DNA of 64,000 bases from a virus (IMGVR_UViG_3300022305_001387:1-64000); one strand, 5' to 3'. Shown: positions 1,952 through 47,516, counted from the stretch's first letter. Made by a program: numbers and translations. Notes: generated from the sequence alone by a model not told the origin.

Positions 1952-1954
1952 TTA

Positions 1955-4127: not shown

Positions 4128-4132
4128 CTCAA

Positions 4133-4447: not shown

Positions 4448-4480
4448 AATATTATTCACGTAATCCTATCTTATGAGACT

Positions 4481-20248: not shown

Positions 20249-20249
20249 T

Positions 20250-21035: not shown

Positions 21036-21036
21036 T

Positions 21037-21750: not shown

Positions 21751-21751
21751 T

Positions 21752-30664: not shown

Positions 30665-30705
30665 CAAAAGGATAATATAATAATCATAATCCAGATAAGA
30701 CCAAG

Positions 30706-31260: not shown

Positions 31261-31261
31261 A

Positions 31262-31379
31262 ATAAAAACTTTTGAAAATACTTGTATAATTATTTTTTAG
31301 TGTCAAAATGTTGTCGTATATTACATATATAATCAATCAAGCAGCTGCAAACCAGCTCAAAAACTAAAAAAAACATAAT
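31262..31379 (+). promoter_or_regulatory. conserved promoter/5'UTR module, copy D (partial)
   Basis: TTTTGAAAATACTTG..TATTTTTTAGTGTCAAAATGTTGTCG...AAAAAAAACATAATATG, parallel to copy C. Confidence 0.45.
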
Positions 31380-31667
31380 ATGACACAAGCCAATGCCACT
31401 AACAGTTACACACTAACAACAATGAACAGCGACCAAGTCTACATGTATATGAAACGTAATGCCCACAAGACTTCTAACACGAACTTGGATTGTTTAGCAG
31501 AAGCCATTCTTACTTCTTATGGATTCGATACTGATATTAACAAGAGCGATCTTAAGCTTATAGCTATTATGCCAGGATATATGTCGGACTTGGACTTCAG
31601 AACTATGGAATGCCATGTATCAACGCAGATGACGGTCGTGCCTTTCTCGGTTGCACACGTTGACTAA
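31380..31667 (+). CDS. hypothetical protein (95 aa)
   Basis: ORF after module D. Confidence 0.5.
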   Translation: MTQANATNSYTLTTMNSDQVYMYMKRNAHKTSNTNLDCLAEAILTSYGFDTDINKSDLKLIAIMPGYMSDLDFRTMECHVSTQMTVVPFSVAHVD

Positions 31668-31736
31668 TCACACCAGATCCAATGCCCTATTACCTTTCAT
31701 CTAATTCTATTTAAAATAAAAAAAACAATTAAAGTT

Positions 31737-32627
31737 ATGAACAAGAACATCATCCTTTCAGCTCTTCAATCTCAGTTACAAACAGTTAAAGCAGACGCTA
31801 TCGCCCATGAGAACGACGTCTACACGCCAGCATTGGCAAAGCTTACAAGCAAGATCAAAGTTTATTTCGATCAGTACGTTGCTCAGAACATTCACGACAT
31901 CTCTATTGCTTCTGATCGTATCACTATCCAACCTAATGACGATACGTCTTACGGAAACACTATCAGCATTGATTATCGTGGCAGTTGGAGAAACGACGGA
32001 GCCTATTTCGAAACTTCTTCTTACCGTCCAGATCTAAAGTCTAACGAAGACAATACCAATACCGTCCGCTATTACAAAACTTTGGCTGCTATTGCTAACA
32101 CATTCGATTTGATCTGCGAGCAGTACAAGACCAAATGGTTGACTGCATTTGCCAAGATCGAATCAGCCAAGTCTGACAAGTACTCTGAGATCTACAAGAT
32201 CGAAAGAGAGATCAGAACCTGCGAGGCTGAGATTGCTGAATTAGAGAAAGAGAAGTATAACCAATCTGGCATTGAATTGACGTTGAAGCCTACGGCCAAT
32301 TACGATTCTTGCTATGACAACAACGAGTGCGTGTATACCAAGAAGATGGTTGAGCACCATATCAAGGCTCATTACGGTCGTAGCAAATACGATTACGCTT
32401 ACATCAATTCGTTCAAGGTTGTTTCATTCCCTAAAGCCAAGCACGGCAAGGTTATATTAGAATGGAAAGGTGGAGCTGATGACACTAAGACACGTACAGT
32501 TGAGCTGAACAAACAACGTTACGCTGAGTTCATCTCAGAAGTACACAACTGGCAAACTAAAGGTGCTGTTGAAAGAGAAGAGAGCATCGACGAAAGAATC
32601 GCTAGATACAATAAAGTAGACGCCTAA
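31737..32627 (+). CDS. hypothetical protein (296 aa)
   Basis: Preceded by AATTAAAGTTATG. Confidence 0.6.
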   Translation: MNKNIILSALQSQLQTVKADAIAHENDVYTPALAKLTSKIKVYFDQYVAQNIHDISIASDRITIQPNDDTSYGNTISIDYRGSWRNDGAYFETSSYRPDLKSNEDNTNTVRYYKTLAAIANTFDLICEQYKTKWLTAFAKIESAKSDKYSEIYKIEREIRTCEAEIAELEKEKYNQSGIELTLKPTANYDSCYDNNECVYTKKMVEHHIKAHYGRSKYDYAYINSFKVVSFPKAKHGKVILEWKGGADDTKTRTVELNKQRYAEFISEVHNWQTKGAVEREESIDERIARYNKVDA

Positions 32628-32775
32628 TCTAAATCACTAAACAATTAAACACATATGTTATGTAACACACATATAACCATACCATAATATGAGGTTAGAC
32701 TTCCTACCAAAAAGTTAATCTTCTCTATATCACCAGAATCAATTAATTTTATCTATAATCAAAACAATAAAAGTT

Positions 32776-33609
32776 ATGTCACAATCAGTATCGCCTAAGG
32801 CACAATCGTTTAAAGCAGGAGCAATCAATTCAATCAGCATGGAAGTAGCCAAGCAACAGGCACCAGCCATCTTCGCTACCGAACCCGCATCGTATATCAA
32901 CCAGAACAGGTATCACTTCACACCTACCTTCGAGATCATAGACATGATGAAGGATATGGGTTATGCATTAACCGGAGCCAAGCAGAGCAAGACTAAGATA
33001 CCTCTGCGTCATAATCACGGAGTACACATCGTAGAGTTCCAGCATCCTGATCTGTATGTAAAGGACAGCACTAACAACGAGATAGAAGCCAGACCTACCA
33101 TCGTTATGGTTAACTCATCAGATGGCTCTAGACCGTTTGACTTTCAGATGGGTATGTTCAGATTGGTATGTAGTAATGGCCTAATCGTTAAGAGCAAAGA
33201 CTTAGGTGGCTTCAAAGAGAGACACACCAAATATAACTTCACTGATCTCAAGGCCATGATCAGCAGCAAAGTAGATTCATTACCTAAGACCATAGAGAAA
33301 ATTAATACATGGACTGGCATAGAGATGGATGCCAAGACCAGACACGCATTCGCAGTAGAAGCTCTAGCTCTCAGATTAGGCAATGATCGTCAAGCAGAGA
33401 CCTACGAGATTCATTCAATCCTGTCCGCTAAACGTAAAGAAGACGAGCCAAACAATCTATGGTGCACATTCAATCGTGTACAAGAGAACCTGATCAAAGG
33501 CGGCTTTCAAATCAACGAAAGGCAAGCACGCCCTATCACCAACCCTTGGCAAGACCTACAGTTGAATCAAAGCCTGTGGACATTAGCTGAAAAGTACGAA
33601 GCCTGTTAG
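32776..33609 (+). CDS. DUF932-like protein
   Basis: VNSSDGSRPFDFQMGMFRLVCSNGLIV resembles the ..HDGS..F....G.FRLVCSNG motif I associate with DUF932 proteins of phages/ICEs (recollection, not a search). Confidence 0.45.
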   Translation: MSQSVSPKAQSFKAGAINSISMEVAKQQAPAIFATEPASYINQNRYHFTPTFEIIDMMKDMGYALTGAKQSKTKIPLRHNHGVHIVEFQHPDLYVKDSTNNEIEARPTIVMVNSSDGSRPFDFQMGMFRLVCSNGLIVKSKDLGGFKERHTKYNFTDLKAMISSKVDSLPKTIEKINTWTGIEMDAKTRHAFAVEALALRLGNDRQAETYEIHSILSAKRKEDEPNNLWCTFNRVQENLIKGGFQINERQARPITNPWQDLQLNQSLWTLAEKYEAC

Positions 33610-33770
33610 TAGTCACGAGTGGAACCGGTTGTCCACAAGTTGGACGCCGGCGACCCACTAGTTACCCACTAGCTCTCCGCAAAAGGGCTAATATTCGTAG
33701 CTAGCGCTTTGGTAAGGGGGCCCGGGGGGCTTTACTCCTCACCAACCCCAAGGAATTTTCAAAAAAGTCA
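33610..33770 (+). other. GC-rich, probably structured, non-coding element
   Basis: GTGGAACCGGTTGTCCAC hairpin; direct repeat CCCACTAG-TTA-CCCACTAG; inverted CTAGCT..AGCTAG; GGGGGCCCGGGGGGC; GC far above local background. Confidence 0.35.
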
Positions 33771-33884
33771 AATAATTTATTTACGTAAATATAAAAAACA
33801 AGTTATGCAAATCATCGAATCACAAATTCAAATCTTATCGGGTTATCCCAAGCCAATCAGTATCATTCATCTAAATTAAAGACT

Positions 33885-34001
33885 ATGAGCGACTTCGCAA
33901 TCATGGTGCTAATAGCATTACCAAACATTATATTCTGCGCCGTAATATTCGCCATGGATATAGCAAACTGCATTGAAAATCGTAAAAATAAAAACAAATG
34001 A
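33885..34001 (+). CDS. small membrane protein (38 aa)
   Basis: Hydrophobic AIMVLIALPNIIFCAVIFAM; ATGA overlap with 33998. Confidence 0.3.
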   Translation: MSDFAIMVLIALPNIIFCAVIFAMDIANCIENRKNKNK

Positions 34002-34402
34002 AAAAACTAACAGCACAACAAGAGCGAGCTTGGACGGAAACCGCATCTGTCGTACATTTCATGAACATTGTACAAGAGGCAAAAGAGAAGTTGCCAGCAT
34101 TAGCAGCAGAGCTCAACGCCAATGAGTTTCACACATCATTTAGTATCGAACAAGAGCACGACTCCAAAGACATTGAATTCTCATGTAAAATTAATTGTAC
34201 GTTTGGCAAATGGAGCAACTATCATTGTGGCAGTTACATCAATGACACGCATGACTTCGATGCAGCGGCCAACAGCATACGTGAGATGCACGCCAAATGG
34301 AAAAAGGAAGAGGACGCAAGAGAGCGCAAGCGCGAAGAAGATAGAATCAAGCAAGCACTCTACGAAGACTACCGAGCGCAATTATCCAGCACACCATTCT
34401 AA
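33998..34402 (+). CDS. hypothetical protein (134 aa)
   Basis: ORF in track. Confidence 0.5.
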   Translation: MKKLTAQQERAWTETASVVHFMNIVQEAKEKLPALAAELNANEFHTSFSIEQEHDSKDIEFSCKINCTFGKWSNYHCGSYINDTHDFDAAANSIREMHAKWKKEEDARERKREEDRIKQALYEDYRAQLSSTPF

Positions 34403-34418
34403 ACCAAAAAAACAAGTT

Positions 34419-34682
34419 ATGACACCGAGACAATACAACGAGTTAAACAGACAAGCAGACGTGATAGAGCAACACACGCACTCCGAGATCGAGCGCCAGT
34501 TGCAAGAGATGCAAGCCAACAAGAAATATATAGCTATGGAATTATGGCCTCCACCGGGACAAAATAGAATTCAGCCTCTTGGCAATGAGATGCGCATCAA
34601 CGAAGGCAGAGCCGGCAAGTGGACAGGAGTCAGCGAAGCGTTCTACGACACTATGGCCAAGAAATATGACTCACGAGGCTAA
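34419..34682 (+). CDS. hypothetical protein
   Basis: Track ORF 34122 re-started at ATG 34419 after AAACAAGTTATG; the upstream part overlaps 33998..34402. Confidence 0.45.
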   Translation: MTPRQYNELNRQADVIEQHTHSEIERQLQEMQANKKYIAMELWPPPGQNRIQPLGNEMRINEGRAGKWTGVSEAFYDTMAKKYDSRG

Positions 34683-34749
34683 AACGCACCGGGGACGGGG
34701 ATTGAATTTTTACATTCTAAACAATTATATTTACATAAATACATTACAT

Positions 34750-35097
34750 ATGAGTGGAGGAGCATTTGAATACAAGCAATATAACATCAGCCAAATTGCT
34801 GATGAGATTGAACAGTTTATCCGAGACAACGGTCGTCCTAAAACGGCGCAAGAATTGAGAGATGAAAGTTGGGGCAGAGATGCCTCATGGTATGAAAAGT
34901 ATCCCGAATATTTGAATTACCATGCATATCCAGACGACATCATCGAAGAGTTTAAACGAGGTCTGCACATAATGAGACAAGCCTACATCTATGCTCAACG
35001 CATTGATTGGTTGCTTAGCGGCGATGATGGAGAGGACTCTTTTCGCAGCCGGTTACAAGCAGAACTTAACGCATTAGAAAAAACTAAAAAAGATTAA
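34750..35097 (+). CDS. hypothetical protein
   Basis: Track ORF 34579 re-started at ATG 34750. Confidence 0.5.
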   Translation: MSGGAFEYKQYNISQIADEIEQFIRDNGRPKTAQELRDESWGRDASWYEKYPEYLNYHAYPDDIIEEFKRGLHIMRQAYIYAQRIDWLLSGDDGEDSFRSRLQAELNALEKTKKD

Positions 35098-35102
35098 TTA
35101 TG
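35083..35102 (+). repeat. 19-nt gene-boundary repeat (copy 3 of 4)
   Basis: ACTAAAAAAGATTAATTATG; the upstream gene ends ..KKD* inside it. Confidence 0.8.
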
Positions 35103-35483
35103 ACATCAATAGAATGGTTAATAGAACAATTTAATCTACAAGCATATACTCCTCACATTGAAAAAGCCAAAGAAATGCACAAAGCTGAACTTGGTAAGAC
35201 ATGGGATGCTGCATTAGATGCAGGGCAGAGTAGAGCATGGAATGTTATGAGAGCTTATGAAGACTTTGATGAATGGTATGAAACATTTGTAAGTAAGGGA
35301 AGTAATGACCATATTGTTGACACCAACGAAATGGTAGATATTTCCCAACAAGAAACTCTATATACAGAAGAACAAGTTAGGGAAGCAATATCAAAATCTG
35401 TATCTATTTTAGTTGGTCAAGAAATTAATTTAGCACAATTAAAAGAATTAACTATCCAATCACTTAAACAACCTAAACAATGA
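35100..35483 (+). CDS. hypothetical protein, MTSIEWL family
   Basis: Paralog of 28440..28826. Confidence 0.5.
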   Translation: MTSIEWLIEQFNLQAYTPHIEKAKEMHKAELGKTWDAALDAGQSRAWNVMRAYEDFDEWYETFVSKGSNDHIVDTNEMVDISQQETLYTEEQVREAISKSVSILVGQEINLAQLKELTIQSLKQPKQ

Positions 35484-35671
35484 AAAATAAACTAAAACAA
35501 TTAATAGGTTGGATTAGATTAAAAATTTGGGGTTTCTGTCCTAAATGTAATTCTGATGCACCTAAATTGTATGATTGTGAAGTTTGTAATTGGGAAAACC
35601 AATATGAAGGTTACAAATTTGTATGGTGGAATAGATTTATTAAACAACTTAAACAACCTAAAAAAGATTAA
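35480..35671 (+). CDS. small zinc-ribbon-like protein
   Basis: CPKCNS...CEVC. Confidence 0.45.
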   Translation: MKNKLKQLIGWIRLKIWGFCPKCNSDAPKLYDCEVCNWENQYEGYKFVWWNRFIKQLKQPKKD

Positions 35672-35676
35672 TTATG
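35657..35676 (+). repeat. 19-nt gene-boundary repeat (copy 4 of 4)
   Basis: CCTAAAAAAGATTAATTATG. Confidence 0.8.
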
Positions 35677-35913
35677 ACATCAAATAAAGCAGATTGGCTA
35701 ACAGAACGAGTCTTAGAACGAGCTCAATGGTATTACACAACCAGTTATCAACGCTGGGCGTTAGAACTTAGTCACGACAAAAATGTTACTATTGCCAAAG
35801 ACATTGCAGTTTTCGTTGTGATTGAACTGCAAAGCCAAACTGAAGACGATTTTTGGTCGGAAGTCAAGCACACTATTATCCGACTCCAGCATAAGGAGTT
35901 ATACAAACCTTAA
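35674..35913 (+). CDS. hypothetical protein (79 aa)
   Basis: ORF in track. Confidence 0.45.
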   Translation: MTSNKADWLTERVLERAQWYYTTSYQRWALELSHDKNVTIAKDIAVFVVIELQSQTEDDFWSEVKHTIIRLQHKELYKP

Positions 35914-35922
35914 AAATAGCAT

Positions 35923-36228
35923 ATGACACAAGAACAACAACAAGACATTCAAGACAAGTTGGATCGACTCACAGATTTGGTAAAAACATCAAACGCAGAG
36001 GCACAAGACTTTGTGATGAGCAATCGCGCAGTCACTTGCATACAAATCATCGGTAAATTCTGTGATGGTCCAGTACAGACGATATTGTCTATGGAAGCTG
36101 TCCAGAGCTGCAGGGAATGTACAACTCTGCAAGACCTTATAGAAACAATAGCTCAACACATGGACTTCGACAGCGAAGCTCAGGGCGCTTCATTCATTTT
36201 AAACTATTTAGACTATGAAATTGATTAA
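35923..36228 (+). CDS. hypothetical protein (101 aa)
   Basis: ORF in track. Confidence 0.5.
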   Translation: MTQEQQQDIQDKLDRLTDLVKTSNAEAQDFVMSNRAVTCIQIIGKFCDGPVQTILSMEAVQSCRECTTLQDLIETIAQHMDFDSEAQGASFILNYLDYEID

Positions 36229-36511
36229 GTGGAAATACAAACCAAGTGGCAACTGCCCGGTACAAGCTGAAGGAGAATTTCTCGGTTGGTACTTTTACTT
36301 TCGTGCTAGACACGACAAGGCCACCATCGAGTTTTCTCGTACCGAAGCGGGTTGGGAAAACGAATTGATTCACGCACGATATGTGCTGGCTACTGAACCT
36401 GATCCGATGGCTGGATGGATGCCAAAATGGAAATGTAGATTTCTTATATACGTCGGGTGCATGCTCTTCTTTTTTAAACGAAACAAACACGAACTCTATG
36501 TCTCACATTAA
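36215..36511 (+). CDS. hypothetical protein (98 aa)
   Basis: ORF in track. Confidence 0.4.
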   Translation: MKLIKWKYKPSGNCPVQAEGEFLGWYFYFRARHDKATIEFSRTEAGWENELIHARYVLATEPDPMAGWMPKWKCRFLIYVGCMLFFFKRNKHELYVSH

Positions 36512-36767
36512 ATATTGCTCTACATACACAAGTACCAAGTGCAACTGTCCCGATGGTGTGTGTCGCAGACAAGCGGCGGAGGCAGAAGCAGAACGATTCA
36601 AGTTAGACAAACGTCAACGTATGCAACAGTTCATAGATGATCTCACCGACTTTCAATTGTTTCTACGTGACAAAGGCTACATCACCGATCACGATTGGGC
36701 CTACGAGGACGAGGCCACCGAGTTTGCCTATCAAACTATGGCGTATAGATTGGAACTCGAAAACTAG
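36498..36767 (+). CDS. Cys-rich hypothetical protein
   Basis: Internal ATG 36498 of the track ORF 36381; CSTYTSTKCNCPDGVC. Confidence 0.4.
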   Translation: MSHIKYCSTYTSTKCNCPDGVCRRQAAEAEAERFKLDKRQRMQQFIDDLTDFQLFLRDKGYITDHDWAYEDEATEFAYQTMAYRLELEN

Positions 36768-36875
36768 ATTTTCTGGTTGTCCTGAATAGTTTTTTATTTA
36801 TGTAAATACTAACATATCGGGACCACAAAGCATTTATGTACTCGAAAGCATACCATTGGATCTGCTAAGAGTCAA

Positions 36876-36994
36876 AGTCAGATGGTGAAATGGTAGACAC
36901 TATGGCAAGTAACTGAATCCTGAAGGCTGCAACCTAATGGCAGTAAGTGAACCCATACCGGACGCGGTTGTAGGTTCGATTCCTACTCTGACTA
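36876..36994 (+). tRNA. tRNA-like gene 1 (119 nt; class-II-type D arm, long interior)
   Basis: Acceptor AGTCAGA/TCTGACT+A, D region GGTGAAATGGTAGACAC, T arm GTAGG-TTCGATT-CCTAC, stem-loop ACCG-GACG-CGGT before the T arm; ~30 nt longer than canonical, anticodon arm not placeable by eye. Confidence 0.5.
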
Positions 36995-37010
36995 CTAAAA
37001 AATAAAAGTT

Positions 37011-37113
37011 ATGAGAAATTTTGATAAAGAATTTAAAGATTGGAAATCTGAGATGATAGGGTTTTTATTAGCTGGTTTCATCTTAGGAGTTTGTTTTGGA
37101 ATATTAATATAGA
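37011..37113 (+). CDS. small hydrophobic peptide (33 aa)
   Basis: After AAAAAATAAAAGTTATG; IGFLLAGFILGVCFGILI. Confidence 0.3.
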
Positions 37114-37121
37114 TATTATTT

Positions 37122-37227
37122 AGTCAGGTGGCGGAATAGAGCAGACGCTAAAATAACGAGTGGACAGCGTGCCATTGGGGAAGAGCCATAAAAGTTACGC
37201 ATACAGGTTCGAATCCTGTCCTGACTA
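37122..37227 (+). tRNA. tRNA-like gene 2 (106 nt)
   Basis: Acceptor AGTCAGG/CCTGACT+A, GGCGGAATAGAGCAGACGC D region, T arm ACAGG-TTCGAAT-CCTGT; long interior. Confidence 0.5.
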
Positions 37228-37229
37228 CA

Positions 37230-37392
37230 GACTTTCACCTATGGCTGTGCAAAGAACTGGTGAAACCCATTAGGAGCCGCAGACTCATTGAATGGGGGCG
37301 TAGGCAACATGAACCTACAACGGTAGAGTGCCTGTAACCGGGTATACCGGCTCCGCAAGAGACCGGGTGACCGTGGAAATCTCTACCAACAT
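37230..37392 (+). other. GC-enriched structured spacer between tRNA-like genes
   Basis: GGTAGAG...CTCTACC long-range pairing, CCGG-GTATA-CCGG hairpin, GTAGG..CCTAC; the track ORF 37328..37513 here looks spurious. Confidence 0.25.
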
Positions 37393-37481
37393 AGTCAGGT
37401 GGCGGAATTGGTCGCTAGTTAATAATAAGGGTCAGTGCTTAGCTCCCGAAAATGATACAGGTTCGATTCCTGTCCTGACTA
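37393..37481 (+). tRNA. tRNA-like gene 3 (89 nt; Leu-like class II 5' half)
   Basis: AGTCAGG-TG-GCGGAATTGGTCGC closely resembles the bacterial tRNA-Leu 5' half; T arm ACAGG-TTCGATT-CCTGT; acceptor CCTGACT+A; central region atypical. Confidence 0.55.
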
Positions 37482-37502
37482 CTAATCAAAAAATAAAAGT
37501 TT

Positions 37503-37718
37503 ATGACAATTGAATTTATCAAAGAAACAAAAGCAAATGGCGACCAATTGTATTACACTAAAGTCGATGACATGTACATTAGTTCAACACTATCGTTTAA
37601 CATAGACGAAGCAAAAGCAATGTACGATAACGTAGTAAAAAACAACGGTAAGTACGTTACTATAGAAGTATTAGAATCAGTAGAGATAGATGATGCAACT
37701 GGTGGTGAAGTATTCTAA
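37503..37718 (+). CDS. hypothetical protein (71 aa)
   Basis: After AAAAATAAAAGTTTATG. Confidence 0.5.
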   Translation: MTIEFIKETKANGDQLYYTKVDDMYISSTLSFNIDEAKAMYDNVVKNNGKYVTIEVLESVEIDDATGGEVF

Positions 37719-37721
37719 TAT

Positions 37722-37794
37722 GCCGCGTTAGAAAAATTGTTAAGTCGTCTCCCTTTCACAGAGAAGATTACGGGTTCGAGTCCCGTACGTGGTA
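37722..37794 (+). tRNA. candidate tRNA (73 nt), anticodon loop CTTTCAC (UUC, Glu?)
   Basis: Acceptor GCCGCGT/ACGTGGT (two G.U), T arm ACGGG-TTCGAGT-CCCGT, anticodon stem TCTC/GAGA; weak D stem. Confidence 0.45.
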
Positions 37795-37821
37795 CAAAGA
37801 CTTTATAAATTTATAATGTTA

Positions 37822-38100
37822 TTATTTAATTTGGCCGATATATTGAAATCCACCAACAGCAGGAGGTTTTTGAAATTTCAATCCACCATCTTTTACCAGT
37901 TTTTCTTTATTCACAAAGGCAAAAGTTTTTTCACCAAAAGCAGCAATCATTTTTACATTGCATGCTTGCATCAATCTAGATTCGCCTATTGATACAGCTT
38001 TGATAGCATCTTCTTTGGTAGAGAATTTAAAATATACTGATTGAGTTTTAACGTCTTCTGTAAGATCAAAATTAATTCCTAATATTTGAATTTTTTTCAT
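37822..38100 (-). CDS. hypothetical protein (92 aa), lone minus-strand gene in the plus-strand array
   Basis: Start taken at internal ATG (MKKIQILGINFDL...); the overlapping plus-strand track ORF 37789..37992 is low-complexity. Confidence 0.5.
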   Translation of the reverse strand: MKKIQILGINFDLTEDVKTQSVYFKFSTKEDAIKAVSIGESRLMQACNVKMIAAFGEKTFAFVNKEKLVKDGGLKFQKPPAVGGFQYIGQIK

Positions 38101-38148: not shown

Positions 38149-38397
38149 ATGCACAAAACAATTTCATTAGTAGCAATCGCTATTGCATTAATCGCTTTAA
38201 TCGGATGGGCAGCACAAGGCTGCGTAGACACGAAACATAAATATGAGATCGAATATGGCCACGGCAAGTGGGCTTTATCTGATTTCACAGACAGCTTCGT
38301 ATTAGACGGCAGTATCAGATACATTAACGAACACGGAGATTCCGTTCGTAGATACGGTACCTTTTCAGTGAGTAATAATAGAGACTACCGAAAATAA
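38149..38397 (+). CDS. small secreted/membrane protein
   Basis: Signal-like N-terminus ISLVAIAIALIALIGWAAQGC. Confidence 0.5.
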   Translation: MHKTISLVAIAIALIALIGWAAQGCVDTKHKYEIEYGHGKWALSDFTDSFVLDGSIRYINEHGDSVRRYGTFSVSNNRDYRK

Positions 38398-40999: not shown

Positions 41000-41103
41000 T
41001 TAGACAAAAATCCTCTCTTTTTTTATACCTCAGCATATTTATTATAGATAGTCCAAGTAAGAAATAGGTTTAAGTGTAAGGTTGTCCGACAACTCACTAG
41101 ACT

Positions 41104-41688
41104 ATGAAAACTTTACTAACTATTGTATTAGTGTTTTTGTTTTCTTTGACAAAGGCACAAAATCCGGATACAGTTCAATACAATGCTACTAATCTATCTA
41201 TATATCAAGTAGCAAATACTCCCGGAGTAGTTTACACATGGACCATTGCCTACCCAGGAATTATCCTTAGTGGACAAGGCACTAACACAATCACGGTCGA
41301 TTGGGGATTAACGAATCCCGGATACATTATAAATGCAGTTTCAGTGTTTGCGACAAATCAATCTAGTTGCAAAAGTCCAATTTCTTTTTTGGACATTTTC
41401 GTACCAATACCGTTATCTTCTATTTTTTTTCCAAACAGTTTTACTCCAAATGGTGATGGATTGAACGATGGGTGGTCTCCAATCACTTTCAATATAGTCA
41501 AAATCAAGTGGCAAGTTTACAACAGATGGGGTGAGTTAGTCTATCAGTGTAGCGATATAGGAAAAAAATGGAATGGAGAATACAAAAATGAGAAACAGCC
41601 AATAAGCAATTTTGTTTTTCAGTGTTGGTGGAAAGGGGTTGATGGTAAAACTGGATTTCAAAAAGGAAACCTAATATTAATCCGATGA
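41104..41688 (+). CDS. secreted protein with T9SS type-B (gliding-motility-associated) C-terminal sorting domain
   Basis: Signal peptide; C-terminal FFPNSFTPNGDGLNDGW...VYNRWGELVY...WNG...GNLILIR matches the T9SS type-B CTD consensus. Confidence 0.75.
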   Translation: MKTLLTIVLVFLFSLTKAQNPDTVQYNATNLSIYQVANTPGVVYTWTIAYPGIILSGQGTNTITVDWGLTNPGYIINAVSVFATNQSSCKSPISFLDIFVPIPLSSIFFPNSFTPNGDGLNDGWSPITFNIVKIKWQVYNRWGELVYQCSDIGKKWNGEYKNEKQPISNFVFQCWWKGVDGKTGFQKGNLILIR

Positions 41689-41903
41689 AAAAATATAAAA
41701 AATATACTGTAAGAATAATAATATTATTGGTTTTATTTTTATTAGCTATTTTATTAAATTCTTGCAATAAGTATTATTCGCCAGAAAAATATGCTAATCC
41801 AAGACATAAGTATATCATTCGTACGACTAAAGGAGAACGTCAAATGACAAGGCTATTAAGACAGTATACTTTTCATGATAGAAGATATGGTTGTGGTTAT
41901 TAA
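41685..41903 (+). CDS. putative lipoprotein (72 aa)
   Basis: LLAILLNSC lipobox-like signal. Confidence 0.45.
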   Translation: MKKYKKYTVRIIILLVLFLLAILLNSCNKYYSPEKYANPRHKYIIRTTKGERQMTRLLRQYTFHDRRYGCGY

Positions 41904-41912
41904 AAATAATTA

Positions 41913-43289
41913 ATGAGAAATATACTTATTACGATATTATCATTTATTCTTTATTTCGCAGGATATTCTCAATGCGGCAATACAGATTTCGAATTGGGTA
42001 ACTTTACTGGATGGAGCGCTCGATTGGGTTCGTGTTGTCCAATAAATTTACCGACAGCGGGATTTGGCAATGGCAGACAAACAATAATGACTCAAGGAAT
42101 TGATCCACACTCTTGCGGAGGACTCCGTACAGTTTACGCGGGTACATATTCAGCAAGACTTGGTAATGATAGAGTTGGCGCACAGGCAGAATCTCTATCT
42201 TATGCTTTGCAAATAACCTCGGCAAATACAATAATAAGATACGCGTATGCAGTAGTATTTCAAGATCCAGGACATGCTACCGCAGATCAACCACGATTTC
42301 AATCTCGTGTTAGATTAGCAAACGGTACAGTAATTCCATGTACGAATTATACTGTCACCGCTGCATCAAATTTACAAGGATTTCAATATTGTCCGCCACC
42401 ACCTCCAGATACGGCAAAAGTTGCGTGGAAAGATTGGACAGAAGTTGCATTAGATCTATCAGCATATGTAGGACAAACTGTGACATTAGAATTTGAAACT
42501 GGAGATTGTAACTTAGGCGGACACTATGGCTACGCATATATTGATGCTGTTCAGTGTGGACAAGTCGATACACATATACCCTATTGCGAAGGAGATACTA
42601 GTTTAACAATAAATGGCATGGGTGGATTTGCAAGTTACCATTGGGAAACAGGAGATACAACACAAAATATAACAATAAATCCACAACTATATGATACTAT
42701 TAGCTGTGTTGTTACTACAGTTTTAGGTTGTCAATTAACACTGTATTATGTATTAGATGTAGCTCCAGGTCATCCTAATTTTATGTATGTTGTTAATTGT
42801 AATGGCTTGGTTCAATTTACAAATATGAGTGTAGCGAATTATACTCCTATAAATTATCTTTGGACGTTTGACGATGGCACTACATCAACCGATGTTAATC
42901 CTGTTCATAGTTTTATATCTGGTAATCATAATGTAAATCTATCGATCTCTTCAAATTTAGGATGCGGTAAAGATACAACTATACAAATATCTGTTCCGCC
43001 TATTCTAAGTCCTAGTTTTTTAGTAAATCCAGTTTGTTTAGGAGAAACATCAATATTCAATAATACTACTCCTCAATCACCAAATTATTATATATCTTAT
43101 TTATGGGATTTTGGTGATGGTGGACAATCAATATTACAGAATCCTAGTCATATGTATTTGACTGCAAATATATTTAATGTAAGTTTAACTGCTATATCTA
43201 ATTCCTCTCCTCCATGTAGTTCAACTTATTTCGGTCAAGCTATAGTTAACGCCGTTCCAATAAGTTTAGGTCCCATCAATCACAACTAG
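41913..43289 (+). CDS. secreted PKD-repeat protein (458 aa)
   Basis: Signal peptide; WTFDDGTTSTDVNPVHSF and WDFGDGGQSILQNPSHMY PKD signatures; no C-terminal sorting domain. Confidence 0.7.
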   Translation: MRNILITILSFILYFAGYSQCGNTDFELGNFTGWSARLGSCCPINLPTAGFGNGRQTIMTQGIDPHSCGGLRTVYAGTYSARLGNDRVGAQAESLSYALQITSANTIIRYAYAVVFQDPGHATADQPRFQSRVRLANGTVIPCTNYTVTAASNLQGFQYCPPPPPDTAKVAWKDWTEVALDLSAYVGQTVTLEFETGDCNLGGHYGYAYIDAVQCGQVDTHIPYCEGDTSLTINGMGGFASYHWETGDTTQNITINPQLYDTISCVVTTVLGCQLTLYYVLDVAPGHPNFMYVVNCNGLVQFTNMSVANYTPINYLWTFDDGTTSTDVNPVHSFISGNHNVNLSISSNLGCGKDTTIQISVPPILSPSFLVNPVCLGETSIFNNTTPQSPNYYISYLWDFGDGGQSILQNPSHMYLTANIFNVSLTAISNSSPPCSSTYFGQAIVNAVPISLGPINHN

Positions 43290-43347
43290 AGTTTCGTACT
43301 CAATTAAGGATTAATTGTTAGTTTCATAACTTAAAAAATTAATCAAT

Positions 43348-44346
43348 ATGAAGTACATTCTATGCCTTTTTCTTTTATTGAATTTCTCAGTTCAAAGTAA
43401 ATCACAATGCATTGATATTTACGGAAGACAATCAGATTGCCCAACTGCTGATGATTCTCTTGTCGTATATAACAACGCTTTAAAAGTGTATGAATTTTAT
43501 GAAAAGAATCCAGATTATGTCAAGTTGAAATCTGTAAAACTTAAAACCAGACAAGAGGTTATAAATTGTTTTTACTCATTACAAGATGCTGTAGACACAT
43601 TTAATATAAGATGGCAGTTAAGGGAGCGCGTATTAAAAGGCGAATTTATACCCAGTGTTTTACTTCCAAGAGACGGTAAAAATATTGCATTAAGCGAATA
43701 TTATCAATACTTAGATGCTTATCGTTTCTATCAAAGAGAATTAGAGAACGGCATATTAAATATTAATTCTCCATTTCCTATATATGATATTAGAATTTCT
43801 CCATTAGTGGTGAATTCTTATGAAAATAGATTTGGAAGAGACGGATTTAACGGAGATTTCGTGAATGTGGCATTGTATATCCCTGTAACAGTTAAGCCAT
43901 ATAAACTATTAACCGAAGAAGAAAAAGTAATTAGAGAGCAAATACTGAAAGGTGTAATTCCAAAAAAAATAGTGCCTAAAACTAATAAGGTAATTACGCC
44001 TACTCCTCCGCCAAAATCTGAAATAAAAGAGATTATTAAAGACACCACTCCTCTACCGAGTGCAAATATAGAAATTATTTTGCCTTCTGTACAAAAACAA
44101 GTGAAAATGAAAACTAATAAGATTCCAAATGGTGCAATACCTTTTTATATTCGTAACGGCTCTGGTGGTGGTTGTCTTATAGGCTATATGATAGGTAGAA
44201 AATTTAGAAAGTATTTACCGACAGATGAATTCTATAATGAAGCAGTACCAACTATAGTTAAAGAATTTTTAAACAATGATATACAATTAGACAAATATCT
44301 TAGAATACAATTTGGAGCATACTACAATGGGTTTTATGAAGATTAA
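43348..44346 (+). CDS. secreted hypothetical protein (332 aa)
   Basis: Signal peptide MKYILCLFLLLNFSVQSKSQ. Confidence 0.55.
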   Translation: MKYILCLFLLLNFSVQSKSQCIDIYGRQSDCPTADDSLVVYNNALKVYEFYEKNPDYVKLKSVKLKTRQEVINCFYSLQDAVDTFNIRWQLRERVLKGEFIPSVLLPRDGKNIALSEYYQYLDAYRFYQRELENGILNINSPFPIYDIRISPLVVNSYENRFGRDGFNGDFVNVALYIPVTVKPYKLLTEEEKVIREQILKGVIPKKIVPKTNKVITPTPPPKSEIKEIIKDTTPLPSANIEIILPSVQKQVKMKTNKIPNGAIPFYIRNGSGGGCLIGYMIGRKFRKYLPTDEFYNEAVPTIVKEFLNNDIQLDKYLRIQFGAYYNGFYED

Positions 44347-44366
44347 CATTTAAAAAAACAAAAAAT

Positions 44367-45713
44367 ATGAAAAACCTGTTAACACTTATTGCGTTATTCG
44401 CAATATCGCTTGGACAAATTCAAGCTCAAAAACTTAGAAATTTAGGATCAAAAGTAAATTCTGTAAAACACGAAATTAGACCAATTATCTCTAAAGATGG
44501 CGGTGTAATGTTTTTTACCGTAGACGGTGGACCAGCAAACAGAAAAGGGCAAGACATTTGGATGTCTGTGAAAAGTGTAGATAGCGGATGGAGAAAAGCT
44601 GAAAGATTGCCAGATTATATCAATAGCCAAAAATATAATGGCGTTTATTGGTGCTCTGCTGATGGTAGAAAATTACTGTTAAGAGGAGAATACGATTTAA
44701 AAAAAACTCGTGGATTTTCATTTACAGAAAGAGTGGATGGTCGATGGACTACTCCTTCACCAATAAAAATAATCAACTATTCAAATATATCTCGTGGAAT
44801 ATTCACTGGAGCCACGCTATCATCGGACGAAAAAGTGATGATACTGTATTTCTGTGAGGAAACAAATGGAGATAACAATGATTTATTTATTAGTTTTTTA
44901 AACGATATAACTAATGAATATTCTTCTCCTATTAAATTAATCATTAGTAAAGAAGAAGAAGACGAGATTAGTCCATATATTTCACCTGATGATAAAACGC
45001 TTTTCTTTTCCTCAGATAAAAAAGGTGGATTGGGTAGCTATGATATTTGGATGTGTAAAAGACAAGATTCAACATGGATGAATTGGTCTGATCCTATGAA
45101 TATTGGAGCTCCATTTAATTCCAAAAAATGGGATGCTTATTTCTCAATAGGAGATAACGGAACTATGGGATATGTTGCTACAAATTGGGTACACAGTTTA
45201 CCAAGCGGATGCGGTGGAGCAGACATAGCCAGCGATACACTGCCTGATTATCTAAAGCCAGAATATCCAAAAGTAATAGAACCTATTCATGATACTATTT
45301 ACATTCATGATACAATTAGTTTTACAGTTCCTTGTAGTCCTTTCGATACTATGACAACAGAGAAATTACGTGAGCAATTAACTAGAAGCAGAGTATTATT
45401 TGATTTTGGAAGATCAGATTTAAGAAGCGATGCATATTACGCACTAGATGTGACTATAGAAATAATGAAAAGAAATCCAAATATTAAAATAGAAGTAGGC
45501 GGAAACACAGACGCAATTGGTATCAGTACAAGAAATCAAAAGCAATCTGATGAGCGAGCTCAATCTGTTAAAAGCTATTTAATATCTAAAGGAATAGATC
45601 CATCAAGAATAGTTGCTAAAGGATATTCAAATACAAGACCTGTTGGAAGTAATAAAACAGATGAAGGTCGCCAATTGAATAGACGCGTAGACATAATAGT
45701 GACTCAAGAATAA
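44367..45713 (+). CDS. OmpA-family protein with N-terminal repeat domain
   Basis: Signal peptide; C-terminal OmpA-like ..IEVGGNTDAIG....NQKQSDERAQSVKSYLISKGIDPSRIVAKGYSNTRPVGSNKTDEGRQLNRRVDIIVTQ. Confidence 0.8.
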   Translation: MKNLLTLIALFAISLGQIQAQKLRNLGSKVNSVKHEIRPIISKDGGVMFFTVDGGPANRKGQDIWMSVKSVDSGWRKAERLPDYINSQKYNGVYWCSADGRKLLLRGEYDLKKTRGFSFTERVDGRWTTPSPIKIINYSNISRGIFTGATLSSDEKVMILYFCEETNGDNNDLFISFLNDITNEYSSPIKLIISKEEEDEISPYISPDDKTLFFSSDKKGGLGSYDIWMCKRQDSTWMNWSDPMNIGAPFNSKKWDAYFSIGDNGTMGYVATNWVHSLPSGCGGADIASDTLPDYLKPEYPKVIEPIHDTIYIHDTISFTVPCSPFDTMTTEKLREQLTRSRVLFDFGRSDLRSDAYYALDVTIEIMKRNPNIKIEVGGNTDAIGISTRNQKQSDERAQSVKSYLISKGIDPSRIVAKGYSNTRPVGSNKTDEGRQLNRRVDIIVTQE

Positions 45714-45731
45714 TTTTAATTAATATATCCT

Positions 45732-46355
45732 ATGAAACTTATACTCTCAATAATCGCCTTTTTATTTGCGTCTTATGCTAATGCTAGTGTTGATACAAGT
45801 AGAGAGGCGCTTATTAGAGTGTTTAAAAAAGAAAAGGAGTTAGAGCTATGGATAAAAAGCGGAAACAAATTTACTTTATACAAAAAATACAAGGTATGCA
45901 AATTAAGTGGAAAATTTGGACCAAAAAGGGAAGAAGGCGATCTTCAAGTTCCCGAGGGAGTTTATGAAGTAAATATATTAAATCCACATAGTAATTATAA
46001 AAAATCCATAGGCATTAATTATCCAAACAAATCTGATAGTATCTTAAGCCAATATGCACATAAAGGAGGATTAATATTCATTCATGGTAATTGCGTATCT
46101 GTAGGATGCATAGCAATAGGAGATCAAAATATAGAAGAGCTATACAAATTAGTTTCTAAGTGCAATAAAACCTATGTGCATATATTTCCAGCAAAATTTG
46201 ATGAATCGAGTGATTATATTGAAAAAAATCTAGTAGAAAAACCTGAATTGACTGAATTCGAATTAGACTTATATCAAGTGTACTTGTATTTTAATCAGCT
46301 TAAAATCCTACCGAAAATTGAAATATCTGATGAGGGCAGATATATCATAGAATAA
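45732..46355 (+). CDS. L,D-transpeptidase (YkuD)-like secreted protein
   Basis: Signal peptide; IFIHGNCVSVGCIAIG resembles the YkuD catalytic H...SxGC motif. Confidence 0.5.
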   Translation: MKLILSIIAFLFASYANASVDTSREALIRVFKKEKELELWIKSGNKFTLYKKYKVCKLSGKFGPKREEGDLQVPEGVYEVNILNPHSNYKKSIGINYPNKSDSILSQYAHKGGLIFIHGNCVSVGCIAIGDQNIEELYKLVSKCNKTYVHIFPAKFDESSDYIEKNLVEKPELTEFELDLYQVYLYFNQLKILPKIEISDEGRYIIE

Positions 46356-46428: not shown

Positions 46429-47469
46429 ATGAAAGATTTTAATTTACACAAATTCTTAAGAGACAATCCTTTAACAAAGCAAAAACAGACTTTGAAAAAA
46501 GGAAAAATAAACGAATCGTTCGAAGGTTTCGGCGGATACAGAGATATATCGCCTATACACGAAGCTCCTATTCAAACAAAAGATTTTAATTGGGATCCTA
46601 CTGATACTGCTGATTATGATGAGCAGTCACAACCAAATAAGTGGATCGCTGATATCGATCGTATGCAACCTGAATATGGAGATTGGAAAGCTACTTGGGA
46701 ACACCCAGGAATTATTGTTTGGTCAAACGCTGATATTCCTGATGCGGTAGTTGTTGCAACTCCAGGATGGGACGGTCAAGGCACTCCAGTTGAATTTCAA
46801 TCTAATGCAGGTTCATCTCAAATGTTAAAAGTTTTGGATCAAGATCAATTCGCGACTTTTAAAGATTATCTTAATGCAATTAGACCTTATTTAGATATGG
46901 TACTTGATGCTAATGTTAATCCTACAAGTACTGACTATGAGACTAGCGATATTAAAGCTCCAGGAATGGGAGAATTTCAAGGTTTACATGAAGGTAAAGA
47001 AGATATTCTTAATAAGATTGAACGTTGGTTACACACTACAACTGAACCTTATGCTGATTACGAATTTGATGGAGATGATACAGTTACTCTTTATGATGAA
47101 GATAACAACGAAATAGAATCATTATCAGTATCTAGAGATATGGGAATAAGAAGCAAAAATTATATGGGAACTCAATACGATTCATCTGAAGACATGGCTG
47201 TAGATATGGTTAAGAAAGGTATAAGGGAAAATGATTCTTTTATCCAAGCACAAAGAGATGCTGATAGTGTGACATCTGATAAAGGTTGGCAATATGATGA
47301 TGAAGAAGAGATGCCAAGTAGAATTGAAGGTCTTGTAAACCTTAGAGAATTAGCTAAATTTGCAGAAGCTGTTATGGCAATTGCTCAAGATTTAGACGAT
47401 GAAGGCTTTGATTCAATTGATATTAAAAAGTTGTTGAAAGACAAACTTGATGATATGATTATTGGATAA
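46429..47469 (+). CDS. acidic hypothetical protein (346 aa)
   Basis: D/E-rich; followed by a strong terminator. Confidence 0.55.
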   Translation: MKDFNLHKFLRDNPLTKQKQTLKKGKINESFEGFGGYRDISPIHEAPIQTKDFNWDPTDTADYDEQSQPNKWIADIDRMQPEYGDWKATWEHPGIIVWSNADIPDAVVVATPGWDGQGTPVEFQSNAGSSQMLKVLDQDQFATFKDYLNAIRPYLDMVLDANVNPTSTDYETSDIKAPGMGEFQGLHEGKEDILNKIERWLHTTTEPYADYEFDGDDTVTLYDEDNNEIESLSVSRDMGIRSKNYMGTQYDSSEDMAVDMVKKGIRENDSFIQAQRDADSVTSDKGWQYDDEEEMPSRIEGLVNLRELAKFAEAVMAIAQDLDDEGFDSIDIKKLLKDKLDDMIIG

Positions 47470-47493: not shown

Positions 47494-47516
47494 AAGCCCC
47501 TTTTTGGGGCTTTTTT
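47494..47516 (+). terminator. rho-independent terminator
   Basis: AAGCCCC-TTTTT-GGGGCTT followed by TTTTT. Confidence 0.75.

Follow-up and report, generated by a model that had tools for sequence, protein, structure and literature searches.

[quoted passage not shown] The window is genuine phage, as judged by its baseplate wedge protein, which is 44.9% identical across 99% of the length to that of the myophage Flavobacterium phage vB_FspM_immuto; other phage-type genes and two tRNAs are also present. The phage resembles a large myovirus of the virulent type. Its host is probably a freshwater member of the Chitinophagaceae (Bacteroidota), and homologues of the island protein U332 found in genomes come nearly all from Chitinophagaceae MAGs. 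Phage genes flank the island on both sides. Its neighbours are small early-type genes, and the structural block lies far away at 52-64 kb. The same genes recur, with varying order and position, in six related contigs (L001, L003, L004, L005, L009 and L058); other backbone genes common to them and the window are 35-70% identical.

The six ORFs are consecutive and lie on the plus strand (Table 1). The initial annotation had described them as a run of exported or envelope proteins, and the ORFs, domains and signal peptides were all borne out; searches with Pfam and NCBIfam models matched the T9SS type B C-terminal domain (CTD), PKD, OmpA_C and YkuD domains in turn. A heuristic based on N-terminal hydrophobic segments flagged 12 of the 107 predicted genes, including all six in the island; the chance of six flagged genes in a row is about 2e-4. 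By the same heuristic the signal peptide of each of the six is a canonical n-h-c one, and in four of the proteins Gln occupies +1 relative to the predicted cleavage, in keeping with the Bacteroidota Q-rule (PMC5837995). The lack of an A-rich/AAGTTATG start context, proposed earlier as a mark of the island, proved to carry no weight. AAGTT-ATG precedes just 18 of 98 genes, so its occurrence in 0 of 6 island genes is uninformative (P ~0.3), and the A content upstream of starts shows no contrast (0.54 versus 0.55). The island probably comprises two sub-modules. One would be a split T9SS type B cargo set, made up of T9B, its coupled small lipoprotein and PKD458; the other would be a periplasmic peptidoglycan set, made up of U332, a PorE-like anchor with propeller and OmpA_C domains, and a DpaA-type hydrolase.

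Table 1. Features of the island and its borders (a slash within a motif marks the predicted signal peptide cleavage site).
Feature	Coordinates	Strand	Characteristics
Upstream intergenic gap, 104 bp	41000..41103	+	T-run (CCTCTCTTTTTTTA), then CATATTTATT at 41034-41043
T9B, 194-aa exported mini-cargo	41104..41688	+	Signal peptide, one PKD-like Ig domain, type B CTD
Small lipoprotein, 72 aa	41685..41903	+	L-x-[GS]-C lipobox
PKD458, exported lectin-like protein	41913..43289	+	Signal peptide (YS/QC), CBM/MAM-like jelly-roll, Ig-like, 2 PKD domains
U332, exported	43348..44346	+	Conserved ~185-aa N-domain, Pro/Lys-rich linker, ~70-aa C-domain
PorE-like putative peptidoglycan anchor	44367..45713	+	SPI signal peptide (QA/QK), PD40 beta-propeller, OmpA_C
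DpaA/YafK-type YkuD-fold hydrolase, exported	45732..46355	+	Cleavage site ANA/SV; YkuD 37.4 bits (cutoff 23.4)
Acidic 346-aa protein	46429..47469	+	Between island and terminator, no signal peptide
Bidirectional intrinsic terminator hairpin	47494..47512		AAGCCCCTTTTTGGGGCTT, then T-run

The T9SS-sorted protein claimed for the island is T9B, whose type B sorting domain is bona fide and selectively maintained. Model TIGR04131 scores 53.5 bits (cutoff 35) over residues 109-193 of 194, the extreme C-terminus, aligned to profile positions 3-84 of 85; CHU_C scores 47.8 bits (cutoff 27) and PKD_6 31.2 bits. Among six phage T9B orthologues, 33 of the 40 invariant columns fall in the CTD, with invariant blocks FPNxFTPNGDGxNDGW, YNRWGE, KWNG and KGxxILIR, and the passenger varies. 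The signal peptide, as predicted by the heuristic, shows the order n-h-c and is followed by Q at +1 (TKA/QN; MKTLLTIVLVFLFSLTKA/QN). T9B aligns over its full length with the T9B of L058 (43% identity), the CTD giving the strongest match; its passenger shares 55% identity with domain 1 of a separate PKD_6 protein in that contig.

The small lipoprotein gene overlaps the T9B stop codon by ATGA and is evidently coupled to T9B in translation. Every lipoprotein copy (window, L001, L004 and L005) has the same 4-nt overlap, and these copies keep the lipobox and a mature N-terminus of the form C-N-[KR]-Y-[YF]-[ST]-P-[ED]-[KR]-Y-A-N-P. PKD458, which matches PKD_4 in two copies (74.8 bits), has no CTD and ends in ...PISLGPINHN, an instance of the unique I-x-H-[D/N] tail common to the CTD-less pieces. 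Its relatives in other large phages are fused to a type B CTD; the cargo appears to be split in the window and to be a single canonical CTD-fused protein in those phages. Of 40 IMG/VR loci, 27 show linkage of PKD458 to T9B. Since PKD458 lacks a CTD, its placement at the cell surface is putative.

No phage copy of the cassette carries a gene for the PorP/SprF shuttle. PF11751 matched no island protein, a PorP_SprF query run with phmmer --max against six-frame ORFs of the window and seven phage loci reached an E no better than 0.054, and tblastn found nothing in 40 further loci. Bacterial contigs with homologues encode both PorP_SprF and CTD cargo.

In the second sub-module, the PorE-like protein matches PD40 (49.8 bits) and OmpA (70.8 bits), and the peptidoglycan-binding motif xSxxRAxxVxxxL (LSxxRAxxVxxxL in PorE) is legible in it as QSDERAQSVKSYL. 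In two blocks it shares 41% and 48% identity with its nearest cellular relative, P0190, encoded directly downstream of a PorP_SprF gene; another cellular homologue, P0236, stands alone. A segment of about 110 aa in the cellular relatives, the CRD, is absent from the phage protein, and profile searches of it found neither TPR nor CarboxypepD_reg. Its scores against the NCBIfam models T9SS_PorE (131.6 bits, cutoff 600) and CHU_0125_OmpA (153.6 bits, cutoff 620) are far below cutoff.

The protein at 45732, labelled L,D-transpeptidase-like in the initial annotation, is better described as DpaA/YafK-type. Its residues 27-206 match E. coli DpaA (PDB 8IKR) with E=3e-29, and it keeps the pattern IHGxCVSxGCxA, which includes the catalytic Cys and has Ala where LD-transpeptidases have the Arg. 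In the alignment to 8IKR, IHGNCVSVGCIAI stands opposite IHGDCVSIGCYAM, and the lysine of GPK, equivalent to Lys83, is retained; residue roles are taken from PMC10653827. NCBIfam LdtF_DpaA_YafK scores 132.6 bits, under its equivalog cutoff of 365, and the protein matches PHROG 17304. Judged by these residues, the product is a DpaA-type hydrolase and not a transpeptidase. U332 has 140 homologues, mainly phage-borne, and neither it nor they match a known Pfam domain; it appears to found a new, mainly phage-borne family. It has many invariant polar residues and a dN/dS of 0.04-0.07, and AF2 models it with low confidence, with neither a fold nor a PDB entry matched. Some large proteins with tail-lysozyme, SLT, LysM or crAss cargo domains also contain the N-domain; such associations, seen in 3-4 of the 20 proteins sampled, do no more than hint at function.

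The transcription unit of the cassette likely begins in the gap upstream of T9B. The 10-mer there occurs once in the window, and in L001, L003 and L009 a terminator hairpin followed by TCATATTTATTGGAAA lies 5' of the orthologous gene. The Bacteroidota -7 motif was not found in the gap, and for that reason no promoter is assigned to it. The strong terminator reported near 47.5 kb is a real hairpin, but it lies after the gene at 46429-47469 and not at the end of the island. The product of that gene has no match in Pfam, NCBIfam or PHROG, and the gene was not seen beside the module in related phage contigs; it may be co-transcribed with the island, and its membership of the cassette is uncertain.

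From these parts we infer export by the T9SS, formation of a complex, and a benefit to the phage. The cassette probably remodels the surface and cell wall of the infected cell by parasitising the host T9SS. Sec would export all six proteins, and T9B would be passed on to the host T9SS; as no phage copy encodes a PorP/SprF shuttle, T9B would have to borrow one from the host. Host operons are proposed to act through a type B substrate, SprF and a PorE-like protein, tied to the wall (PMC12618676), and the phage PorE-like protein may likewise fasten the T9B-shuttle complex to the wall, and links between wall and envelope would be altered by the DpaA-like enzyme and U332. The infected cell would then show phage-specified glycan-binding proteins and altered envelope tethering. 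Type B substrates usually need their cognate shuttle in stoichiometric amounts (PMC12618676); with no shuttle encoded, export might be inefficient, or T9B might jam shuttles instead of being displayed.

The benefit that we favour, tentatively and by analogy with T5 Llp and T4 Sp, is a block on adsorption or entry, whether by superinfecting phages or by progeny that would otherwise be lost on debris. In the literature, resistance to Flavobacterium phages maps to gliding and T9SS genes. The CBM-like fold and a PL6 lyase encoded in L001 would suit adhesion or foraging as well as exclusion.

Somewhat unlikely, yet the closest of the alternatives, is that the infected cell displays or secretes glycan-binding proteins, with a lyase in the relatives, and so is kept on polysaccharide particles or near other hosts, or gains nutrients during a long infection. 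The lyase that L001 adds is PL6/chondroitinase-B-like (202.6 bits), the known type B substrates are adhesins (PMC12618676), and the phage T9SS cargoes published so far are limited to glycoside hydrolases and one PA14 protein. But the window has no lyase, the sole CTD-bearing passenger in the island is a single Ig domain of about 85 aa, and secreted enzymes would be public goods, weakly selected in a lytic phage. Adhesion or foraging would also leave the DpaA-like hydrolase, the PorE-like anchor and U332 unexplained.

A role in lysis or egress appears improbable. On this account the wall-active proteins U332, the DpaA-like hydrolase and, in relatives, NlpC/P60, together with the small lipoprotein of the outer membrane, would weaken the attachment of outer membrane to peptidoglycan in the manner of spanins, and the outer membrane would fail at lysis. 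DpaA-type enzymes do release outer-membrane tethers from peptidoglycan (PMC10653827, PMC8263019). A small lipoprotein is at hand, the U332 N-domain keeps company with tail lysozyme, SLT and LysM, and in L004 the module has an NlpC/P60 gene on one side and a Phage_holin_10 gene on the other. Against such a role, neither the window nor L001, L003, L005, L009 or L058 has an adjacent holin or endolysin, a holin being adjacent only in L004. The lipoprotein is coupled to T9B and not to a type II membrane protein, and there is no i-spanin-like partner. The island sits among early-type genes at a distance from the structural block, its T9SS cargo and lectin-like protein have no obvious part in lysis, and Sec-exported enzymes would act ahead of holin triggering unless restrained.

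Ig-like and PKD domains are frequent on phage particles, which could suggest Hoc-like decoration or structural proteins with N-termini that are merely signal-like. That reading is very improbable, given the six canonical signal peptides, four of them with the Bacteroidota Q, the remoteness from the structural block, and a T9SS CTD, lipobox, OmpA_C domain and periplasmic DpaA-type enzyme that would make no sense in cytoplasmic assembly.

The residency of the island in the phage is established. Its composition is indistinguishable from that of the phage backbone (GC 0.334 versus 0.335), and the deviation of its codon usage ranks 85 of 95 blocks; a compositional distinctness of the kind that would set a moron, strictly a gene set expressed from a prophage, apart from the backbone was not found. 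Island genes have dN/dS of 0.04-0.36 and are under purifying selection. A comparison of host and phage origin places all the closest relatives (50-84% identity) on phage-like contigs, with cellular homologues distant, at or below about 43%. It is scarcely credible that the island is host flank, an assembly chimera or a host operon captured very recently: its domains are typical of Bacteroidota envelope proteins and its cellular homologues reach 34-43% identity, but its codon usage matches the phage and its genes are under purifying selection. The genes are also found in no fewer than six further phage contigs, and dozens of IMG/VR contigs carry the PKD458/T9B pair. The auxiliary cassette first proposed is upheld in another respect, being present, absent, expanded or reshuffled among related phages. 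Variable presence and position go together with transcription signals: relatives have a terminator and a conserved element upstream of the cassette, and the window has a terminator on its downstream side. The cassette is probably a lineage-conserved accessory block of a large myovirus.

How does this block compare with known systems? T4 Imm and Sp are exported exclusion proteins of a virulent phage. The T5 lipoprotein Llp is another such protein (PMC9586334), and all three, like the products considered here, are made by a lytic-type phage as small exported proteins or lipoproteins and act in the envelope; they supply a plausible rationale for blocking adsorption or penetration of the wall. The cassette has no sequence or structural similarity to them, is far larger and would depend on the T9SS, and exclusion is proposed for it only by analogy. 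With E. coli DpaA (LdtF/YafK; PMC10653827, PMC8263019) the hydrolase has full-length similarity, the GC-x-A context of the Cys, the GPK lysine and a signal peptide in common; it differs in being phage-encoded, in scoring below the equivalog cutoff and in its Bacteroidota host, from a group with no Lpp-type tether known to us. With PorE (PG1058) the anchor shares a PD40 propeller followed by OmpA_C with the peptidoglycan motif, and it differs as a phage protein with an SPI instead of a lipoprotein signal and without TPR or CRD.

The nearest counterparts of the whole are the type B adhesin operons of F. johnsoniae, in which a substrate is encoded with a PorP/SprF-like shuttle and a PorE-like protein, as in Fjoh_3952/3951/3950, and their P. 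gingivalis equivalent, PG1035-PorP-PorE (PMC12618676). Both they and the cassette encode a substrate with a Sec signal and TIGR04131 together with a PorE-like binder of propeller and OmpA_C domains, both have PKD/Ig and lectin-like passengers of adhesin type, and in both a gene is tightly coupled directly 3' of the substrate gene. Here the set is phage-encoded, the downstream position is held by the 72-aa lipoprotein instead of PorP/SprF, the PorE-like protein is the reduced form described above, the cargo consists of a CTD carrier separate from CTD-less pieces that bear the I-x-H-[DN] tail, and a DpaA-type hydrolase and U332 are added. The 'Cryophage' of Bellas et al. 2020 (PMC7468147) likewise encodes T9SS sorting domains in variable accessory regions, with a presumed hijack of the host T9SS. 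Its CTDs are of type A, on an endoglucanase, a GH39 glycoside hydrolase and a PA14-domain protein, whereas the cargo here is of type B, would depend on a specific shuttle, and is accompanied by a PorE-like anchor, a lipoprotein and wall-active proteins in a module that recurs across many large phages.

The six genes of the island were found at exactly the positions given in the initial annotation, and profile searches recovered every domain it had named there: the type B C-terminal sorting domain (CTD) of type IX secretion systems (T9SS), PKD, OmpA_C and YkuD. Signal peptides were assigned by a heuristic, a simple N-terminal hydrophobic-segment test, which flagged all six proteins and so agrees with the exported character first ascribed to them. 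The test finds signal-like N-termini in 12 of 107 genes predicted across the window, and half of these twelve form the consecutive run in the island; the chance probability of such a six-gene run is about 2e-4. Gln opens four predicted mature N-termini (KA/QN, YS/QC, KS/QC and QA/QK, with the slash before the mature protein), as the Bacteroidota 'Q-rule' describes for substrates of signal peptidase I (PMC5837995). Envelope-type genes outside the island encode an exported 175-aa protein resembling an OMP beta-barrel, an SPFH/Band-7 protein, and two small lipoprotein-like ORFs.

Table. Positions of island genes, other window features, and features and module gene orders of related contigs
Feature	Position	Strand	Remarks
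T9B	41104-41688	+	TIGR04131 53.5 bits (cutoff 35), profile positions 3-84 of 85, extreme C-terminus; CHU_C 47.8 bits; PKD_6 domain N-terminal to CTD
Small lipoprotein, 72 aa	41685-41903	+	Lipobox
PKD458	41913-43289	+	Two PKD domains; C-terminal tail
U332	43348-44346	+	No known domain
OmpA protein	44367-45713	+	PD40 repeat and OmpA_C
YkuD protein	45732-46355	+	YkuD domain
Hairpin	47494-47512		
Baseplate wedge protein	62302-63912	-	
Fibre- or adhesin-like block	15299-22333	+	
OMP beta-barrel-like protein	22717-23244		Sub-threshold
SPFH/Band-7 protein	25549-26094		
Lipoprotein-like ORFs	7104-7358, 38149-38397		
Intergenic repeat	2060-2087, 4901-4928, 9115-9142	+	Divergent copy near 31.2 kb
Compositional outlier	30000-38000		
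DUF932 gene	32776-33609		
tRNA-Ile	37393-37482		Anticodon aat; unusual length, 90 nt
tRNA-Glu	37722-37795		Anticodon ttc
898-aa type B protein	L060 (LR756502.1 413908-422381), ORF 1781-4477		
Further tail-bearing proteins	L004, L005, L058, L061-L078, L098		
Lyase and ~762-aa protein	L001 3987-8054; L004 15075-17366		
Cellular U332 homologue and type A cargo	L002 5090-10969		
OMP-barrel-like ORF	L058 887-1327		
Module, phage loci L001/L006			T9B, lipoprotein, PKD458, PL6 lyase, 762-aa protein, YkuD, U332, OmpA
Module, L003 and L009			T9B, PKD, 762-aa protein, U332; YkuD also in L003
Module, L004			NlpC/P60, U332, OmpA, PKD_6, T9B, lipoprotein, PKD458, 763-aa protein, YkuD, holin
Module, L005			PKD_6, T9B, lipoprotein, PKD458, U332 only
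Module, L058			U332, OmpA, PKD_6, T9B

Two contrasts drawn earlier between the island and its flanks did not hold. Its genes had been said to lack the start context of the surrounding phage genes; AAGTT-ATG precedes only 18 of 98 genes, so that none in six is unremarkable (P about 0.3), and upstream A-richness is 0.54 inside the island and 0.55 outside. The strong terminator hairpin is real, but it lies after the next gene, for an acidic 346-aa protein without a signal peptide, rather than at the island's end. A sigma-70 promoter scan did no better than shuffled sequences, and the gap upstream of the island does not contain the Bacteroidota -7 motif TAnnTTTG; no promoter was assigned. Elsewhere in the window an intergenic repeat, TTGGTTCTCCCYGA..TTTTTGAAAATA.TTGC...ATGTC, sits in long gaps, at a distance of about 100-130 nt upstream of start codons. 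Three strict copies are observed where none is expected by chance, and a role as phage promoter or regulatory repeat is probable.

The phage setting of the island, recognized at the outset, is borne out by its surroundings. The baseplate wedge protein aligns over 99% of its length with its counterpart in Flavobacterium phage vB_FspM_immuto, a 160-kb myovirus, at 44.9% identity, and the window also bears dense small genes, two tRNAs, and GP88, UvdE and DUF932 genes. Megablast against GenBank phages found no close DNA relative of the 38-50 kb stretch. Far from the baseplate genes (52-64 kb, - strand) lies what looks like a fibre or adhesin block: a 1,649-aa protein without known domain, then two Laminin_G_3 proteins, the first scoring under Pfam's cutoff, and a Fib_succ_major protein.

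In composition the island cannot be distinguished from the rest of the window (GC 0.334 vs 0.335; GC3 0.212 vs 0.227), and its codon-usage deviation ranks 85th among 95 size-matched blocks; it is not a compositional island. The outlier of the window is a region of GC about 0.40 and GC3 about 0.41, compared to 0.33 and 0.22 elsewhere, that holds the DUF932 gene and long non-coding gaps. All island genes are under purifying selection, with dN/dS of 0.04-0.08 for U332 and the OmpA protein against a relative 82-83% identical and 0.15-0.24 for island genes against L001, values that are rough because dS is saturated (>1) in every pair. Phage-like composition, purifying selection, and recurrence in related phage contigs make a host flank or an assembly chimera very unlikely.

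Many backbone genes are common to the window and the module-bearing contigs, at 35-70% identity, while the module genes recur reshuffled, differing in order, content and position among these phage-like contigs. Judged by this gene content, the related phages form one lineage with a mosaic accessory module. OmpA is missing from the adjacent block in L003 and L009, and a homologue occurs about 7 kb upstream on the L009 contig (L062). Extra genes in relatives encode a PL6/chondroitinase-B-like lyase (589 aa) and a protein of about 762 aa, whose L004 copy gives a weak type A CTD signal below threshold (TIGR04183, 19.1 bits vs 23). PKD458 as a probe retrieved 40 further IMG/VR loci, the largest of their contigs being 321 kb. 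Of the 40, 27 have a small type B CTD gene linked to it and 16 a small PKD_6 protein, OmpA, U332 and YkuD are linked to it solely in the window's own sub-lineage, and no match to PorP/SprF, the host shuttle for type B substrates, occurs at any of the 40.

Across six phage orthologues of T9B, 33 of 40 invariant columns fall within the last ~90 residues, where the invariant blocks are FPNAFTPNGDGxNDGW, YNRWGE, KWNG and GKxG..KG..ILIR; the passenger region, about 85 residues, comes in two divergent types. A conserved CTD with a varying passenger is, at the level of sequence, the pattern expected of a working sorting signal. The window's passenger is 55% identical to domain 1 of a tail-ended PKD_6 protein in L058, and the whole protein aligns over its full length with L058's own T9B at 43% identity, most strongly across the CTD. 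These two matches mark the window's T9B as a chimera, and show that one passenger occurs either fused to a CTD or tail-ended beside a CTD protein. Four phages conserve the lipoprotein, whose mature N-terminus reads C-N-[KR]-Y-[YF]-[ST]-P-[ED]-[KR]-Y-A-N-P; it always starts in overlap with the T9B stop codon, at the same ATGA.

Several phages, among them L063 on a 225-kb contig, encode their whole cargo as a single ORF of about 880 aa, with a signal peptide, the same CBM-like domain as PKD458, PKD repeats, and a type B CTD; proteins P0321 and P0357 share this architecture. Since the same domains stand with a CTD in one ORF in other phages, on this comparison the window's lineage has divided a canonical type B cargo among separate genes. 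A type B domain (51.2 bits, cutoff 35) also occurs in an unannotated 898-aa protein of the deposited 642-kb uncultured 'megaphage' LR756502.1, and LR745206.1 gives four weaker type B matches.

PKD458 itself has no CTD. Its matches include CBM61, CBM4/16/22 and MAM domains, an alginate-binding CBM, and a gingipain K1 adhesin domain, and it resembles a lectin or adhesin rather than an enzyme. Every CTD-less piece of the module (members of the PKD458 and PKD_6 families and two further exported proteins) carries P-[LIV]-P-x-I-x-x-I-x-H-[DN] at its extreme C-terminus. The retrieved loci together contain 1,269 distinct ORFs of 100 aa or more, and I-x-H-[DN] ends 28 of them, against about 0.2 expected by chance. 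All 28 are module proteins with a signal peptide, and none of the approximately 1,240 other ORFs ends in this way. Tails co-vary within genomes (ISHD/ISHD, ISHN/ISHN, IYTN/IYTD). The sequence P-x-P-x-I-x-x-I-x-H-[D/N]-COOH may serve in docking or sorting; more simply, it could be left over from a linker preceding a CTD. Confinement of the tail to module proteins, its co-variation, and the passengers that are CTD-fused or tail-ended in sister phages support a larger reading of the docking tail, to which we assign a low probability: a minimal split type IX cargo system in large Bacteroidota phages, in which tail-docked, CTD-less passengers would be taken along by a stand-alone T9B-type carrier consisting of one Ig-like domain and a type B CTD, with the coupled mini-lipoprotein in the genomic position of the SprF shuttle. 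Such a system would imply either piggy-back export or a sorting signal of a new kind, and to our knowledge neither is known for T9SS.

U332 has 140 close matches, none with a Pfam domain and most on phage-sized contigs, and 36 loci in IMG/VR. It also occurs alone in phages of about 45 kb carrying ERF, NinG and lysozyme genes, and few genomes have it: 10 loci among 185,579 species, nearly all in Chitinophagaceae MAGs. By homology it is a new, mainly phage-borne family. No fold match under E=0.7 was found by Foldseek in the PDB, nor any match by profile search of PDB sequences. The low-confidence AF2 model (pLDDT 66) is alpha/beta and not a barrel, which speaks against U332 as a divergent PorP/SprF protein. 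A full profile search finds the conserved N-domain also inside many proteins of 600-2,900 aa (P0382-P0507). Five of 20 sampled show Phage_lysozyme2 (tape-measure-like), SLT transglycosylase, LysM, crAss cargo or SET domains, and 15 have no Pfam or PHROG match. This suggests an uncharacterized cell-wall-directed domain of phage virion proteins; these partners, from the few annotated proteins, hint faintly at a cell-wall-directed role for U332. On a 413-kb bacterial contig (L002), the gene for a cellular homologue lies directly 3' of that for a 1,581-aa T9SS type A cargo (beta-helix, PKD_6 and Por_Secre_tail), which hints at a link between U332 and T9SS cargo in cells too.

Among NCBIfam models the OmpA protein scores best with CHU_0125 and PorE, in each case far under cutoff. 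Two of its blocks align with P0190, a cellular protein, at 41% in the propeller (residues 1-299) and 48% in OmpA_C (residues 327-448), and it lacks the central carboxypeptidase-regulatory-like segment of about 110 residues; a PorP_SprF gene lies directly 5' of the P0190 gene in its bacterial contig. PorE, itself a lipoprotein, combines TPR, propeller, CRD and OmpA_C domains (PMC5053529), of which the phage protein keeps the propeller and OmpA_C, so by domain content it is PorE-like but reduced. The YkuD protein, called L,D-transpeptidase-like in the initial annotation, is better described as DpaA-type. Over residues 27-206 its similarity to E. coli DpaA (PDB 8IKR) reaches E=3e-29. It has the catalytic Cys in GC-x-A, with Ala where LD-transpeptidases have Arg, and retains the GPK lysine that the structure paper describes as DpaA-specific. 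The GC-x-A context and this lysine predict a hydrolase that releases proteins from peptidoglycan, or trims peptidoglycan, rather than a cross-linking enzyme.

As a working model, Sec would export all six proteins, and the host T9SS would be loaded with T9B, possibly together with the tail-ended, lectin-like PKD458. The PorE-like protein would fix the complex to peptidoglycan, and the DpaA-type enzyme and U332 would alter wall-envelope links. Type B export needs a dedicated shuttle and the cassette has none, so T9B must use host PorP/SprF or compete for one. The OMP-barrel-like ORFs in the window and L058 were rejected as substitutes, being too small, sub-threshold and mutually unrelated.

Phage resistance mutations in Flavobacterium typically fall in gliding and T9SS genes. 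T4 Imm and Sp are exported envelope proteins that block re-adsorption or entry. Llp of the virulent phage T5 acts likewise (PMC9586334). On these grounds we tentatively favour exclusion or progeny protection as the benefit, and the cassette is a testable candidate for surface conversion or superinfection exclusion. Almost equally plausible is a role in adhesion or foraging, in view of PKD458's CBM fold, the PL6 lyase in L001, and the glycoside hydrolases among the T9SS cargoes of 'Cryophage'. A third, weaker possibility is a role in lysis, suggested by the holin and NlpC/P60 genes that adjoin the L004 module.

Phage accessory genes for exported proteins are known already, as is phage T9SS cargo, for which the searchable literature holds one report: 'Cryophage', termed a unique occurrence by its authors (PMC7468147). 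Its cargo CTDs are type A, whereas that of the cassette is type B, and no description of type B cargo in phages was found in that literature. Here the type B cargo set recurs across many large and jumbo phage contigs and, in the window's lineage, comes together with a PorE-like wall anchor and a DpaA-type hydrolase. Three features are left unexplained: the splitting of the cargo with the tail at its C-terminus, the mini-lipoprotein coupled to T9B, and U332 as a family. Two unannotated features are now defined, the U332 family, with a domain common to tail-lysin-type proteins, and the I-x-H-[D/N] tail. The closest known system is the set of F. johnsoniae host operons that combine a type B substrate, its cognate SprF-like shuttle, and a PorE-like protein (PMC12618676). 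The phage cassette shares the substrate and the PorE-like anchor but lacks the shuttle, and offers T9SS research a natural, minimal probe of shuttle specificity.
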